Shown one piece after another: positions 14,241-43,086 of a DNA stretch of 64,000 nucleotides (position 1 is the first letter of the stretch; each line of letters opens with the position of its first letter). The stretch spans positions 192,001 to 256,000 of the forward strand of contig CAVRJM010000001.1 in the NCBI GenBank assembly GCA_963722075.1, in the 5' to 3' direction. The notes beneath the pieces were generated by a model that saw only the letters and a list, made by a program, of their open reading frames with translations, searched no databases and was not told where the DNA came from. This DNA comes from Candidatus Babeliales bacterium. GTDB taxonomy: Bacteria; Babelota; Babeliae; Babelales; JANWKD01. The position numbers and the translations under genes were made by a program.

Positions 14241-14981
14241 ATGAAATATTTATTTATTAAAAAAATAATAAGCACCGTTATGATATCCATTTTTAGTGGG
14301 CTTTTATATAGTATGGATAGGCCAGATGATCTAGAGGGTGGATCTATTCAAGTAGATTTGGCCAATATTTCTTTATTTAGTCATATTTATAATGCAGATG
14401 AGGTCAGTGTACTTGATCGTGAAAGTTTAAAGGAAGATCTAGAGCAAAAAAAGCTGAAAACCGTTTCCATTCTTCTTGAAATGTGTTACAGATGTCGCGT
14501 TGATCTTTGTGACGGTGATTTATTCCAGAACAGCTTTTTTTTCCCACAATGGGCATGGGAAGAAGAATATCCGGAAGGCTTAATAAAAATACATGCCATT
14601 TGGCAGTTGCTACGAAGTGATTATGAAATACAACGCGATATCGGAAAAATTACATTTTTAAATCTTATCGAAAGTCTTAATTCTACTTCACAAGAAATAA
14701 TATTGAAACAATTAAATTCTTACAAAATGTCCAAAGAAAGACTTTTTATTAATGTGTGTCTAACGCTAATGCCTTTTTCTGTAATAGGATTAATTGGCTA
14801 TTACGAAAATGAAAACGATTTGTGGAAAAACAAATCTTTTAAATTAGTGATAGGGCTTGGGGGTGTTGCTGCTCTTTTATATGGCTCGATAAAAGTTGGC
14901 TGCTCAACTCAAGATTATAGGTGGTGGCAATCAGCCAAGCGGTTTCAGAAGGCAGTAGCTATCTGTGAACAATCTTCTTAG
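14241..14981 (+). CDS. Secreted/membrane hypothetical protein (paralog of 16922-17611)
   Basis: Signal peptide ending YS-MD; two C-terminal TM helices; RWW..AV.IC ending shared with 16922. Confidence 0.75.
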   Translation: MKYLFIKKIISTVMISIFSGLLYSMDRPDDLEGGSIQVDLANISLFSHIYNADEVSVLDRESLKEDLEQKKLKTVSILLEMCYRCRVDLCDGDLFQNSFFFPQWAWEEEYPEGLIKIHAIWQLLRSDYEIQRDIGKITFLNLIESLNSTSQEIILKQLNSYKMSKERLFINVCLTLMPFSVIGLIGYYENENDLWKNKSFKLVIGLGGVAALLYGSIKVGCSTQDYRWWQSAKRFQKAVAICEQSS

Positions 14982-15101: not shown

Positions 15102-16364
15102 ATGCATTATAAAAAGCTTTTTTTATTATTCTTGTTGATTGGTATACCGTTAACAAGTAATGCTAGGCTTAAGACAGCATTGTTAAATTCGATCTTAACG
15201 AATAAATTTCATCGGCGGCTTGAGGATGTTGGCTTTGGGGGGACATGGGCTTTATTAGCAATGGGTGGTTTTCATGCAGCTGAAACAATGTGGTGGGATA
15301 AGAAACCACTTAGTAAACACAATCTTATACTACCGATTGCAGGAATTGTTACTATGATAGGAACGATGGGTTTATCTACTTATTTACAAATTAAATCAAG
15401 AAGTTGGAATCCCTTTCAAGAAGAGCTTAATGCCGCAACTAATAATTATGAGAATAAGAAAAAGGATCTTATCAAAAAACTATATGAAGTAGAGCTAAAT
15501 AAAGAAAAAGAAATAGTTGAGCGGTTGAATGAGTTAGAAACTGATTTAGATAAAAAAATAATAGAAGCACTAGATAATAACCATAATTATAAATCATTTT
15601 TCCTTTCCAGGAGCATGGGAACAGACCGATACCAAAACATACAAGAATTATTATTTAGTCGTAATCCACGGCCAAATATTCTTATTCATCTTTGTAGGTA
15701 TGGATTTAAACTCACCACTCACGAATTTCAAACAATACTGAATGAATGGCCCTTAACTGATGCTAACTATCTATTTAAAAAAATGAGTAAGTTAAAAAAA
15801 AATGGTCTTTACACACAAAATAAATGCAAAATTGTCGGATTGTCTGACTATTCTGATTGGTTGGAGCTCTGGGCAGATTATGCAAATAATTCAAATAACC
15901 TATATCGTAATATAAAACTTTTTGAACGGTTAAATAAGTATGGTACTTGTATGGATTTAACAGAAGTAGTTATTTATTGTGTTAGAAAAAACTATTTTAA
16001 TGTTATTGATTGTTTAAAAAAACAATTTGGTATTGATTTGAATAAAGGAAATAAATATGGGGAAACGCCACTTGAAACTGCTACTTTAGCTAATAATATA
16101 GTGATGGTTAAATACCTAATAGAGCAAGGTGCATCTGTGGTGAATGCGAAAACTAAAGGGTTATTATGGTTTGCTAAGAGATTTCCCGACCGCTTAATTT
16201 ATGATTATCTAAAAAGCAAATTGAGAGACCAACTAGTTGATAATTTTAAAATTATATTGGGCAATGGTTATACCAATAGATATGAATACAGAACTGGCTC
16301 TATTCCTACAGAATTGCCTGATGAACTTATACAACATATTGCCGACTATGCAGTAAAAAAATAA
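15102..16364 (+). CDS. Secreted/membrane ankyrin protein with C-terminal F-box-like motif
   Basis: Signal peptide, 2 hydrophobic segments, coiled coil, GETPLETATLANNIVMVKYLIEQGA ankyrin repeat, terminal ELPDELIQHIADY. Confidence 0.75.
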   Translation: MHYKKLFLLFLLIGIPLTSNARLKTALLNSILTNKFHRRLEDVGFGGTWALLAMGGFHAAETMWWDKKPLSKHNLILPIAGIVTMIGTMGLSTYLQIKSRSWNPFQEELNAATNNYENKKKDLIKKLYEVELNKEKEIVERLNELETDLDKKIIEALDNNHNYKSFFLSRSMGTDRYQNIQELLFSRNPRPNILIHLCRYGFKLTTHEFQTILNEWPLTDANYLFKKMSKLKKNGLYTQNKCKIVGLSDYSDWLELWADYANNSNNLYRNIKLFERLNKYGTCMDLTEVVIYCVRKNYFNVIDCLKKQFGIDLNKGNKYGETPLETATLANNIVMVKYLIEQGASVVNAKTKGLLWFAKRFPDRLIYDYLKSKLRDQLVDNFKIILGNGYTNRYEYRTGSIPTELPDELIQHIADYAVKK

Positions 16365-16395: not shown

Positions 16396-16902
16396 ATGGA
16401 ATTATATAAAAAATTGATATTGCTTATGGGTATTATAGTGGTAATGCCTTGTGTATTTGCAATGGAGCATGAAGATGACCCAGAATTAGCGGAAGCAATG
16501 AAGCGGTCATTACTTGGGCAAAATCAATACCTGCCAAGTGCGCCCCCAATGCATGGAGTTCAAAATAGTGAAATAGCAGATCGAAATTTAGCAATAGAAC
16601 TTACCTACTCATGGAATAATTCTGAAGGCAATGGAAAAGAAAGAACGGGTAATGATGATTCTCAAAATTATGCAGGTTCTTCACGTTCACGTGGTACAAA
16701 TAGACCGGTTGATTCCACTAATTTTAATTTTGCTGCCCGTCATGCTGCACTTACCGAGTTTAAAAACAAACCATGTAATAATTGTTTTTATAGGCAAAAT
16801 CTACCTTGGTACAAAAAATATTTTCTTCCACTTATTAGTAGTGCAGCACTTTTTGGTGCGGGTAGTTTATTTACCTACGCATTGATGAAGTGGACTCGAT
16901 AA
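16396..16902 (+). CDS. Secreted tail-anchored protein with UIM-like and PSAP motifs
   Basis: GAGG RBS; signal peptide ending FA-ME; EDDPELAEAMKRSL; LPSAPP; C-terminal TM helix. Confidence 0.75.
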   Translation: MELYKKLILLMGIIVVMPCVFAMEHEDDPELAEAMKRSLLGQNQYLPSAPPMHGVQNSEIADRNLAIELTYSWNNSEGNGKERTGNDDSQNYAGSSRSRGTNRPVDSTNFNFAARHAALTEFKNKPCNNCFYRQNLPWYKKYFLPLISSAALFGAGSLFTYALMKWTR

Positions 16903-16921
16903 TGATTCTCCTTCAGTAATA

Positions 16922-17611
16922 ATGGTTTTTATGAAGAAGTATATTTCTTATCTACTTTTTGCTTTTTCTATTTTAAGTTTATTTATGAGTACTGCTTCAT
17001 TACTGCATGCTATGGATAGTGATTCAGAATGGTGGCAAGAAAATGAAAAGCAACAAGCAATTATCACGCTGGTAAGTACCATAGCAAAAATGGGATATAT
17101 TTATCAAAAATTAGATATTCAAAATATCGAATTTCCCGTTTACATACCGGAGGTTACCGGAAGATATGATTTATGGTGTAATAATTATGATTCTCCTAAT
17201 CCTTTTGAGAATTCTCATTGGGATAAATACTGTCCTGGTGGGTATGATCAATGTTCTGCTGCAGTAGATCAATTAAAGAAACGTTTACCAGAAAATACAT
17301 TACTTTCTCTTATTGCAAAACTAACGCCATTAAATAAAAAAATACTCTTGAAGGATTTGCAACAATATAATCCAAACCCTTCTTTATATTGGCGTATTGC
17401 AGGTACAAGTGCATCGGCAGTGTTGTCGGTAGGTAGTGCGGCTCTTACGTATACATTTCCTGATTTAAAATATGCTGGTATTGCTGGCATGGTGCTGGGT
17501 GGAATTGGTACTTTAGTAGGAGCATGTTTTGTAAAAACTAGTTTTAGTGAGCGGCAATGGTGGCGGCGATGTCCTAATTGCCATGAAGCAATTAGACTTT
17601 GCAAAGAATAG
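16922..17611 (+). CDS. Secreted/membrane hypothetical protein (paralog of 14241-14981)
   Basis: Signal peptide ending HA-MD; LSLIAKLTPLNKKILLKDL matches LNLIESLNSTSQEIILKQL; two TM helices; QWW..AIRLC. Confidence 0.75.
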   Translation: MVFMKKYISYLLFAFSILSLFMSTASLLHAMDSDSEWWQENEKQQAIITLVSTIAKMGYIYQKLDIQNIEFPVYIPEVTGRYDLWCNNYDSPNPFENSHWDKYCPGGYDQCSAAVDQLKKRLPENTLLSLIAKLTPLNKKILLKDLQQYNPNPSLYWRIAGTSASAVLSVGSAALTYTFPDLKYAGIAGMVLGGIGTLVGACFVKTSFSERQWWRRCPNCHEAIRLCKE

Positions 17612-40209: not shown

Positions 40210-41559
40210 ATGGATAATAGTTCGACTATTAAGACATGGTGGGGTACTTTTACCAGGCCAGAGCTTAAGAAATTTTCTTTATTAGGTGGTATTTTTGGAT
40301 TTACCATTGGTGTATACTGGCTTTTAAGGCCTATCAAAGATGGTGTTTTCAATCAGTATGTGGGTGCTACCTACATCCCTACGGCAAAGCTCGTTTCTCT
40401 GGTTGTTGTTATTCCATTAGTTATAGTCTATTCCAAGCTCGTTGATGCGTTCCCGCGTCAACGCGTATTCTATGCATTAAGTGGTATTTATGCATTACTA
40501 GCGCTCGGTTTGGGCCTAATTATGATGCACCCTGAACTGGGAATGCATATGGCAATTCCTCAAGTGGGCCACCCATCAATCTGGGGAAGACTCATTGGCT
40601 GGTTTGCATATTCCTATGTAGAAAGTTTTGGTTCCATTATGGTGGCGCTCTTCTGGGCATTTGCTGCTGACACCACCACTCCTGAATCAGCAAAGCGAGG
40701 GTATGCACTTGTTGCGTTTGGGGCTCAATTGGGTGGGATTCTTGGGCCTCTGGTGGCTGCAACGCAAGCTGAAAAAATTGGAGAGCCAATCTTATTATTA
40801 ATCGCCAGTGTGGTGATGCTTGGTATCGGTGGTATGGTATGGTATTTCATGCGCGTTACTCCTAAAGAAGAACTTGCAGGGTATCAAGCTGCTGGTGCAC
40901 ATGCAAAGCCAAAAGAAAAAACAAACTTTATGGATGATATGAAGCTTCTTTTCTCTCAACCATATTTACTGGGTATTTTTGGCGTTATTACGTTATATGA
41001 AGTAATTGTAACTATTTTTGACTTTTATTTAAAATATTTCGCTTCATTAGAATTTAATGGTGCAGGAGAATATACCGCGTACTTAGGTATGTATGGCGTA
41101 TATACCAATATCCTTGCCTGTATTTGCGTTTTCTTAGGGGTAAATAATATTGGTAGAAAATTAGGTCTTGGTGTAGCGCTTACCATTACGCCCGTTATTA
41201 TTGCAATTGCGGCACTTATTCTTGCCTTTAAACCGACACTTTCAATTGCTTTCTGGATTATGGTGTTCTGTAAAGGTCTTAATTACGCGCTTAATCAGCC
41301 GTCTAAAGAACAGCTTTATATTCCTACAACTCCTGAAACTAAATATAAAGTTAAAGCATTTATGGAAATGTTTGGTTCTCGTAGTTCAAAAGCATTTGGT
41401 TCGCTTATTAACATTGTTAAACAATTTGTTAGCAGTGAATCATTCATACTCTTTTCGACTGTAGCATCACTGGGTATGGTTGGCGTGTGGCTCTATGCGG
41501 CGTTGTTCCTTGCAAAGACACACAAACAAGCGATTGCTGAGAAACGAGTTGTATGTTAA
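40210..41559 (+). CDS. Nucleotide (ATP/ADP) translocase, Tlc/Npt family
   Basis: LLRPIKD, YSKLVD, LFWAFA..TTPESAKRGY, KGLNYALNQPSKEQLYIP..KYKVK; about 12 TM helices. Confidence 0.88.
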   Translation: MDNSSTIKTWWGTFTRPELKKFSLLGGIFGFTIGVYWLLRPIKDGVFNQYVGATYIPTAKLVSLVVVIPLVIVYSKLVDAFPRQRVFYALSGIYALLALGLGLIMMHPELGMHMAIPQVGHPSIWGRLIGWFAYSYVESFGSIMVALFWAFAADTTTPESAKRGYALVAFGAQLGGILGPLVAATQAEKIGEPILLLIASVVMLGIGGMVWYFMRVTPKEELAGYQAAGAHAKPKEKTNFMDDMKLLFSQPYLLGIFGVITLYEVIVTIFDFYLKYFASLEFNGAGEYTAYLGMYGVYTNILACICVFLGVNNIGRKLGLGVALTITPVIIAIAALILAFKPTLSIAFWIMVFCKGLNYALNQPSKEQLYIPTTPETKYKVKAFMEMFGSRSSKAFGSLINIVKQFVSSESFILFSTVASLGMVGVWLYAALFLAKTHKQAIAEKRVVC

Positions 41560-41592
41560 TTACAGCAATTAATAATGAAAATTAATTAGTAT

Positions 41593-41622
41593 AAAGGCCT
41601 TCTAAAAAAAGAAGGCCTTTTT
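41593..41622 (+). terminator. Intrinsic terminator between the two translocase genes
   Basis: AAAGGCCTTCT-loop-AGAAGGCCTTTTT. Confidence 0.75.
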
Positions 41623-41676
41623 GTGTTAGTAGCATTTTTTGCATTATTCATTTATAAGATTTCTAGGGGACGCTAT

Positions 41677-43086
41677 ATGAAATCTAAGCTCGGTGGTTTT
41701 GGTTCTTTTTTTGGTATGCAACGTGAAGAGCGTTTGAAGCTCATTTTATTAGCAGTTTCTTTCTTTCTTGTTATTGGTGCATACTCATTAGTTCGTGAGC
41801 TTAAAAGCTCTATGTTTATGAGTATTGTGGGTAAAGAATATGTACCCATGGCGCGCATGCTCGCCATGCTCTTATTAATTCCTGCTACTTTATTTTATTC
41901 GTTCCTGGTTGATAAAATGAAGCGCTATCAGCTTCTGTATTTTTACAGTATTGCATATGGTGTTGCTGGATTGTTTTGCGTCTATTTAGCGGGGCATCCA
42001 ACGATTGGGCTTCCTAATACAGAAACAAGTGCGCACCGCTTATTTGGTTGGTTTTTTTACTTTTTTATAGAAGTTTTTTCTCCCTTTGTTATTAGCGTTT
42101 TTTGGGCTTTTTCCAACTCAGTGTATAATCCTGAAGGGGCCAAAAATAACTACGCCTTATTAGTATCTGCGTCTAAAGTCGGCGGTATGGTTACCACCGG
42201 GTTAGCGTGGCTCTTATTTAGCCATCGTTCCTTAACGGGTGATAAGATTTTTTCTGACGTCGTTGGCCACCAATTTTTATTGGGATTCTTTTCTCTATTG
42301 GCGCTTATAATACCGTTTGTCGTGTACTTACTTATCAAAAATGTCTCTAAAAAATATCTGCATGGGTATGAAGCGGCGTACCAGTTTGAACGAGAAAAAG
42401 AAAAGAAGCATGAAGAAAAGGTAGGTATTTTTTCAGGCCTTACCTTGCTTATTAAATGCCCTTATATTTTAGGGATATTTGGTATGCTCTTTTTTTACGA
42501 GGTGGTGAGTACCGTATTGAGCTACCATCGATTAGGGATCGCGCAGGAGAGCGCTTCAGACGTCTCTGGCGTGAGTGCGTTCTTATTTGGTATGGCTTTT
42601 ATTCAACATTTTTTTGGTATTATCATCTCGTTTTTAGGAACGCGAACCTTACTACGGGTATTTGGTGAGCGTATTTGCTTATTATTAGTACCGACCATTG
42701 GCGCAATTTTACTGTTATACTTTACGTTGAGTTACACGGTACTTGCCGTGCAAATTGGCCTTATATTATTACAGGCAATTAACTACGCATTTGCGCAGCC
42801 GGTACGTGAGAGCTTATATATCCCAACATTGAAGGATATTAAATTTAAATCAAAATCGTGGATTGATGCATTTGGATCTCGTTTTGCAAAAAGTGTGGGG
42901 TCTACCTTTGTTATGGCCTCGATTAATATGGGTCCTGCCATGTTTGTTCCAGTACATGCGAGTTTCTTTGCGCTCATTAGTATCTTTTGGTTTATTACCG
43001 CGTATCTCCTTGGTAAGCGTTATACACGGGCCATTAGAAATAATGAGGTTATTGGAGTGGAAGAAGCGCGTGAGCAGGTTGCTTAA
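41677..43086 (+). CDS. Nucleotide translocase, Tlc/Npt family (second paralog)
   Basis: LVRELKS, YSFLVD, VFWAFSN, NYAFAQPVRESLYIP..KFKSKSWIDAFGSRFAK; start set at 41677. Confidence 0.86.
   Translation: MKSKLGGFGSFFGMQREERLKLILLAVSFFLVIGAYSLVRELKSSMFMSIVGKEYVPMARMLAMLLLIPATLFYSFLVDKMKRYQLLYFYSIAYGVAGLFCVYLAGHPTIGLPNTETSAHRLFGWFFYFFIEVFSPFVISVFWAFSNSVYNPEGAKNNYALLVSASKVGGMVTTGLAWLLFSHRSLTGDKIFSDVVGHQFLLGFFSLLALIIPFVVYLLIKNVSKKYLHGYEAAYQFEREKEKKHEEKVGIFSGLTLLIKCPYILGIFGMLFFYEVVSTVLSYHRLGIAQESASDVSGVSAFLFGMAFIQHFFGIIISFLGTRTLLRVFGERICLLLVPTIGAILLLYFTLSYTVLAVQIGLILLQAINYAFAQPVRESLYIPTLKDIKFKSKSWIDAFGSRFAKSVGSTFVMASINMGPAMFVPVHASFFALISIFWFITAYLLGKRYTRAIRNNEVIGVEEAREQVA

Follow-up and report, generated by a model that had tools for sequence, protein, structure and literature searches.

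Hrs and Vps27 join a FYVE anchor, UIMs and P(S/T)AP-type motifs and in this way bring ESCRT-I to membranes (PMC2172707, PMC2172688). The PSAP of Hrs alone binds Tsg101 weakly, and a second region is needed for full affinity (PMC2172688). Canonical ESCRT-0 is described only from opisthokonts and Tom1 fills its role elsewhere (PMC12051064), so that the counterpart in a protist host would be Tom1; the Dictyostelium protein binds both ubiquitin and Tsg101 (PMC7952518). Pathogens also address this machinery with short motifs. The PTAP of HIV-1 Gag p6 mimics Hrs during virion budding (PMC10159163, PMC2172688), and in Toxoplasma the secreted transmembrane protein GRA14 is described as recruiting TSG101 to the parasite vacuole through a PTAP, its motifs being dispensable for uptake (PMC8700025). 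Bacterial effectors reported to engage Hrs, Tsg101 or ESCRT-III include the DUF582 effectors of Chlamydia (CT619), EsxG/EsxH and SopB (PMC5053991, PMC10159163). As these sources present them, they bind by folded domains, unlike the motifs considered here. The terms PSAP, PTAP, 'late domain' and UIM do not occur in the main text of PMC5053991, and the table of a 2023 review gives no motif for any of its six bacteria (PMC10159163).

Within the Babeliales (Dependentiae), Babela massiliensis is described as growing in a vacuole with a type II system only and three translocases, and as secreting F-box, RING, USP and Ulp1-like proteins, with the ubiquitin system as the target (PMC4378268). The words UIM, Tsg101 and ESCRT are absent from the main text of that paper, and UIM and ESCRT from nine of its supplementary files. 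Here we describe a gene from a 64,000-nucleotide window (the whole stretch of DNA that was analysed) of a Candidatus Babeliales genome, which encodes a small protein, P0001, in which a UIM-like helix and a PSAP lie between a predicted signal peptide and a predicted tail anchor. P0001 likely shares lineage, signal-peptide export and a focus on ubiquitin with the Babela proteins.

As read from its sequence, P0001 resembles Hrs/Vps27 and Tom1 in placing a putative ubiquitin binder, a putative Tsg101 ligand and a membrane element in one chain, within 146 mature residues. Unlike those proteins, it has no VHS, FYVE, GAT or STAM-binding region (Pfam; VHS and FYVE also by NCBIfam), and it differs from Hrs and Tom1 in being bacterial, 168 aa long and equipped with a signal peptide, and in having a predicted tail anchor where they bind lipids. 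The coiled-coil and Pro/Gln region of Hrs, which holds the second Tsg101 site and the STAM-binding site, is not evident in P0001, where about 90 residues separate PSAP and anchor. P0001 would be an analogue at most. The initial annotation had proposed a possible ESCRT-0 mimic; membership of ESCRT-0 itself does not hold, as neither VHS nor FYVE is found with Pfam or NCBIfam. Membership of the Tom1/TOL family was likewise rejected, because Pfam finds no VHS or GAT (domain definition from PMC12051064). P0001 may work like GRA14, although the latter comes from a eukaryotic parasite and, from its description (PMC8700025), carries PTAP plus YPX(n)L motifs at its C-terminus with no UIM mentioned, whereas the motifs of P0001 are N-terminal. 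P0001 differs from Gag p6 by its additional UIM and integral anchor.

Gene layout and neighbourhood

The features of the locus, in window coordinates, are:

15102..16364, + strand: upstream neighbour, an ankyrin protein with a signal peptide and, at its C-terminus, an F-box-like pattern (Pfam Ank; two homologs at the G001 locus)
16396..16902, + strand: P0001 gene, 168 aa, four homologs
16396..16461, + strand: residues 1-22, a Sec signal peptide by heuristic prediction, with Met-Glu after it
16471..16512, + strand: UIM-like helix, residues 26-39, with acidic patch, Leu, Ala, Met and Ser (16.8 bits)
16534..16545, + strand: PSAP, residues 47-50, predicted ligand of the Tsg101/Vps23 UEV (from sequence; kept in P0003)
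16579..16602, + strand: DxxLAxxL segment, residues 62-69, weakly MIU-like (loose core only)
16603..16773, + strand: polar linker (gaps in the family alignments; low pLDDT)
16774..16785, + strand: CxxC, residues 127-130 (in four of five family members)
16804..16899, + strand: predicted tail anchor, made of an aromatic/basic flank, a helix of moderate hydrophobicity (143-164) and a short basic tail (165-168)
16922..17611, + strand: downstream neighbour, a signal-peptide protein of 229 aa without known family (homolog in G001)

The layout first described for this protein, with signal peptide, UIM pattern, PSAP, linker and one C-terminal hydrophobic helix, was borne out at these positions. The ORF is preceded by an AGGA ribosome-binding-like site and is one of several consecutive plus-strand genes for signal-peptide proteins that lie between gyrB and a rapZ-like gene (names from reading the translations); a promoter scan gave chance level (16 vs 19.1). 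The database call of the same gene, P0002, begins at Met11 of P0001, but Met1 is the likely start because P0003 and P0007 have the same first six residues. Contigs of two other runs, covering 16597-16839 and 16817-16967, show no differences, and the shortened middle of P0001 is therefore not an assembly error.

The upstream gene adjoins P0001 as the initial annotation had stated, but the name F-box-like gene given to it there holds only in part, since Pfam assigns ankyrin repeats and no F-box, and the F-box-like tail is a pattern match. A functional link between the two genes appears weak, given that the same-genus genome G001 has two ankyrin neighbours at the syntenic locus and keeps the flanking genes there without the P0001 gene. 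An ankyrin protein with a similarly truncated F-box-like C-terminal pattern, also without Pfam F-box match, is encoded at L052:12574-14475. The arrangement of ankyrin repeats with a C-terminal F-box-like element is that of poxvirus ANK/PRANC proteins. Two neighbouring signal-peptide proteins of the window with no known family (14241-14981 and 16922-17611) resemble each other in their C-terminal hydrophobic segments, have a W-W motif, and are possibly paralogs.

The UIM-like helix, PSAP and the MIU-like segment

The UIM consensus (PF02809) consists of an acidic patch followed by hydrophobic-x-x-Ala-hydrophobic-x-x-Ser, with which the profile line against PDB agrees; residues 26-39 of P0001 conform to it. 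On a matrix built from 37 UIMs of relatives, with P0001 excluded, this segment scores 16.8 bits, a value reached by none of 2000 shuffles and ranking within the top three of 1274 own proteins. It exceeds only five of the 37 leave-one-out scores, which places it at the weak end of the range of the order. Pfam reports no UIM in P0001 (the segment is below the curated cut-off of PF02809), and genome searches with PF02809 and with our profiles A4 and A6 missed the protein. The UIM first proposed here thus stands on consensus and matrix score but not as a Pfam match, and residues 26-39 are likely a UIM, if a weak one, from a lineage where UIMs are in wide use.

Shuffling the mature part of P0001 yields PSAP in 360 of 100000 cases, and shuffling P0003 in 85 of 100000; UIM score and PSAP coincide in none of 20000 shuffles of P0001. 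The AlphaFold model of P0001 has a mean pLDDT of 49.4, with residues 35-133 below 50; at this low confidence it shows a helix at 29-44 and places PSAP in coil, an unstructured setting of the late-domain type.

The MIU pattern has a D/E-x-x-L-A-x-x-L core followed by Q/A-x-acidic residues. Residues 62-69 of P0001 contain the loose core, which is found in 152 of 20000 shuffles, but do not fit the stricter pattern, and the MIU-like reading proposed initially is not supported. The segment may be a decayed copy of a UIM of the P0003 type, or the family core may begin here. Among the signal-peptide proteins of relatives, the strict MIU pattern is present in 12 of 83 UIM-bearing and 3 of 601 other proteins, one of the 12 being a mere overlap with a UIM.

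Homologs of P0001

Index searches, which covered lengths close to that of P0001 only, and one full scan gave four homologs, namely P0003 (the closest), P0007, P0008 and P0010. All family members have in common the ending of the signal peptide, a middle region and the aromatic/basic flank before the C-terminal helix, whose best 19-mer hydropathy is 1.44-1.95 over the five proteins. P0001 lacks much of the middle region shared by the four homologs and has the polar linker there instead. Identity between P0001 and P0003 amounts to 12/22 in the signal peptide, 14/50 in the motif region (23-72), 15/63 in the middle and 28/33 in the anchor, so residues 136-168 are the most conserved part. Both proteins contain both motifs in reversed order, PSAP standing directly before the UIM in P0003, where the UIM scores 21.5 bits against a Pfam cut-off of 21. 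The two can be aligned in two registers, one placing the first UIM on the UIM (score 28) and the other placing PSAP plus residues 62-69 on PSAP plus UIM (score 33). The other three homologs score 4.5, -3.2 and 10.4 bits on the UIM matrix; weak UIM-like traces are seen in P0007 and P0010 (reached by 22 and 37 of 2000 shuffles) and none in P0008, while PSAP is absent from all three. Joint retention of UIM and PSAP in homologs, by which the initial annotation proposed to judge its claim, is therefore found in P0003 but not in the three more distant homologs, which have no PSAP.

Beyond these proteins, a search of the remaining 260 of the 261 genomes of the order gave no significant homolog of P0001; weak matches, seen at E<=1 in 11 of 100 other genomes and at E<=0.01 in 8 of 260, were taken as noise. 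P0001 has no family match in Pfam, NCBIfam or the ESM Atlas, and phmmer against PDB returned chance rows only, both for residues 21-75 and for P0003. The AlphaFold model of P0007 has a pLDDT of 49.1, and Foldseek gave no match with it at E<=0.001. Metagenome, genome and viral contigs were scanned for the surroundings of the four homologs and gave a genomic context for none of them; the single locus returned (L013) was rejected as an archaeal membrane protein sharing a short aromatic/basic stretch only.

UIM proteins across the order

At the loose level of E<=1, a Pfam UIM search matched 72 of 201 genomes, four of them over the cut-off, a tally that we do not use as proof since 5 of 14 control genomes also match at that level. 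Reading of 30 loci revealed signal-peptide proteins with clear, often tandem UIMs. Profile A4, made of 37 rows from these loci (five loci and one duplicate left out), matches 67 of 261 genomes at E<=0.3, and a UIM profile of 106 rows matches 79 of 261 at E<=2. The PDB matches of the profile are mostly known UIM proteins (ataxin-3, RAP80, STAM2, Vps27, Hrs and S5a), an agreement that is circular because the seeds came from Pfam UIM matches. On 15 chosen UIM proteins, Pfam shows fusions to USP, RING, WD40 and ankyrin domains, with a sub-threshold F-box-like match.

Across the order (L014-L043, L072-L181), UIMs are carried by signal-peptide proteins, often in tandem and often with an MIU. The fusion partners include USP (L016, L017, L028), RING (L024, L030), WD40 (L014), ankyrin/F-box-like (L037) and a RanBP-type zinc finger (L167). 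Signal-peptide proteins with near-canonical ubiquitin domains devoid of the C-terminal diglycine are encoded at L182:230-1321, L182:1372-2382 and L183:1417-1992, and PF00240 is over its cut-off in 13 of 261 genomes. No UEV domain exceeds the cut-off in the 261 genomes and no ubiquitin gene is found in the own genome, so the partners of P0001 would be those of the host.

Loci of relatives for counting P[ST]AP were picked by UIM, not by PSAP. In the first batch the motif is present in 5 of 64 UIM-bearing proteins against 1 of 430 other signal-peptide proteins; local shuffles predict 1.03 and reach five in 4 of 1000 cases, and of 12 letter orders this was the only one to pass. The second batch (40 regions), which is underpowered at 0.39 expected, gave 0 of 19 UIM-bearing against 3 of 171 UIM-free proteins. 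Pooled, the counts are 5 of 83 (1.5 expected) against 4 of 601, the former reached in 4 of 400 shuffles. The five proteins belong to five separate clusters out of 59, but to four genomes, and the two from L130 have an N-terminal UIM region in common. A PTAP of the L167 UIM protein lies within the signal peptide and was excluded by the fixed cut at residue 22. The co-occurrence of UIM and P[ST]AP in unrelated proteins of the order is a modest signal that the second batch did not reproduce, and it lends modest support to the adaptor reading. Closer spacing was also considered, PSAP at most 20 residues before a UIM being found in 2 of 132 windows against 0.17 expected (53 of 5000), and was rejected, as this count had been devised after the fact and a control that overlaps it, [ST]APP, performed equally.

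The own genome shows no enrichment of P[ST]AP (5 of 553 signal-peptide proteins vs 3.1 expected), whereas the control order PAP[ST] is enriched (9 vs 2.9 expected); PPxY, LYPxL and YPxL show no enrichment there either. The other P[ST]AP proteins of this genome lie at G000:C1:1043109-1046539, 245095-247356 and 225450-226289; among them is a pair with PSAP near the N-terminus, one of which has a second PSAP and a PPxY. In relatives, L056:6609-7499 (the L027 gene) and L134:9470-10597 each encode a soluble secreted protein in which one of several UIMs is immediately preceded by PSAP; the former has a strict MIU in addition. Judged by sequence, these two come next after P0001 as candidate ESCRT adaptors.

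The organism and its export capacity

The genome (1.47 Mb, 34.7% GC, 99% complete) encodes TLC ATP/ADP translocases and FtsZ, and its gene content fits that of published Babeliales, parasites of protists, among which we infer it to belong. Two TLC translocase genes stand in tandem at G000:C1:232249-235023 (about 40250-43020 of the window). Two secretins and two ATPases of the T2SS type are present, while FHIPEP (type III) and VirB4 (VirB-type IV) were not found in this genome. By our heuristic, which is not SignalP, 553 own ORFs are signal-peptide-like and 721 are not. The cultured Babeliales of two genome reports infect protists (PMC6561590, PMC4378268), and for one of them, Chromulinavorax, signal peptides on 44% of proteins and replication wrapped in a host mitochondrion are described (PMC6561590).

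The signal peptide of P0001 was called by the same heuristic, from a basic N-region and a 12-mer hydropathy of 2.93. Its end (window 16459-16467) is of a junction type seen genome-wide, a small residue followed by Met and D, E, Q or N; after own-genome signal peptides, the residue following small residue-Met is one of these four in 143 of 207 junctions, against 20% of 529 in mature regions, a count confounded by the acidic bias after Sec signals. Cleavage before Met would yield N-termini matching the eukaryotic NatB acetylation consensus. Alternatively, the junction may label proteins for sorting during export. A C-terminal hydrophobic helix is present, by heuristic, in at least 27 signal-peptide proteins of the own genome. 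The default for a signal peptide plus a C-terminal helix is insertion in the bacterial inner membrane with the protein facing the periplasm, and the charges flanking the helix of P0001 do not decide its topology.

Discussion

Our preferred reading, possible though short of an even chance, is that P0001 is exported and tail-anchored and serves a protist-parasitic bacterium as an adaptor. Its UIM would hold host ubiquitin and its PSAP the UEV of host Tsg101, and ESCRT-I would thereby be recruited. P0001 would be exported by Sec with cleavage of its signal peptide, would pass through a type II-like system, and would be held by its C-terminal helix in a host membrane, with the vacuole of the bacterium as the most plausible one and the N-terminus in the cytosol. 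There, weak contacts of UIM with ubiquitin and of PSAP with UEV would act jointly, the anchor replacing the FYVE of Hrs, and ESCRT-III would then repair the vacuole membrane or bud host material inward. The weakest step is topology, that is, the exit from the bacterial inner membrane and the placing of the N-terminus in the host cytosol. This adaptor reading is favoured because P0003 keeps PSAP and a Pfam-grade UIM despite the low identity of the motif region, because UIMs are an established tool of the order, and because the own genome has a secretin/T2SS-ATPase system. In amoebae, Tsg101 is recruited to bacterial vacuoles and repairs them, which favoured bacterial growth (PMC6329560). Against it stand the three of four homologs without PSAP and with a weak UIM or none, the lack of P[ST]AP enrichment in the own genome, the empty second batch and the absence of the gene from the G001 locus. 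The vacuole, named as the target of recruitment in the initial annotation, is not supported by the present data.

The same evidence bears on other readings. P0001 could be a ubiquitin-binding effector in which PSAP is an incidental by-product of a proline-rich linker, and which would shield or gather ubiquitinated proteins on a host membrane or bind ATG8, binding of UIMs to ATG8 being cited in PMC11810923. In this sense, P[ST]AP is absent from the mature part in 78 of the 83 signal-peptide proteins of relatives that bear a UIM, the second batch gave none in 19, and in the own genome it is a control tetrapeptide that is enriched. However, P0003 keeps PSAP on the other side of the UIM within an otherwise divergent segment, and the pooled enrichment was matched in only 4 of 400 shuffles; we consider an incidental PSAP somewhat unlikely. 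Less likely again is that P0001 does not face the host at all, either staying in the bacterial envelope or being a decaying family member without its core, with motifs inherited from a P0003-like ancestor or arisen by chance. The default topology, the largely missing middle region, the patchy distribution and a UIM below the Pfam threshold would all fit this. Yet the frame is intact and the anchor nearly identical to that of P0003, UIM score and PSAP come together in no shuffle, the same type of signal peptide heads USP, RING and ankyrin proteins, and the partners, as argued above from the search for UEV and ubiquitin genes, would be the host's.

The same contacts could also serve as a decoy that traps Tsg101 and ubiquitinated cargo on a wrong membrane, for instance the mitochondrial outer membrane, and blunts lysosomal sorting. 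The further Tsg101-binding region on which the full affinity of Hrs depends is missing from P0001, whose anchor combines moderate hydrophobicity with basic flanks, the pattern of mitochondrial tail anchors. Chromulinavorax with its mitochondrial wrapping (PMC6561590) would suit such a role, and mycobacterial EsxG/H inhibit ESCRT (PMC10159163). ESCRT at the vacuole favoured bacterial growth in amoebae (PMC6329560), which speaks against a decoy, and we regard this reading as the least likely of the four.

Returning to the adaptor reading, its wider form would be that Babeliales have repeatedly built ESCRT-0/Tom1-like adaptors from a UIM or MIU plus P(S/T)AP, a late-domain mimicry as in viruses. 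At least seven secreted proteins in six unrelated groups could be counted (P0001 with P0003, those of L027, L110 and L134, and two in L130), with P0001 as the membrane-anchored minimal form. We hold this generalization as doubtful. We found no bacterial protein with UIM plus PSAP in the published literature, a survey with subscription journals mostly outside its coverage, nor a description of the UIM/MIU set on secreted proteins of the order in the literature on Dependentiae/Babeliales and ubiquitin or on UIM bacterial effectors. Late-domain mimicry as such is already known from viruses and Toxoplasma, and the new part would be the pairing of UIM and PSAP that the sequence suggests in a bacterium. 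If the adaptor reading is true, P0001 would be a minimal bacterial ESCRT adaptor made of a ubiquitin reader and a Tsg101 ligand, and it would address how vacuolar bacteria recruit ESCRT.
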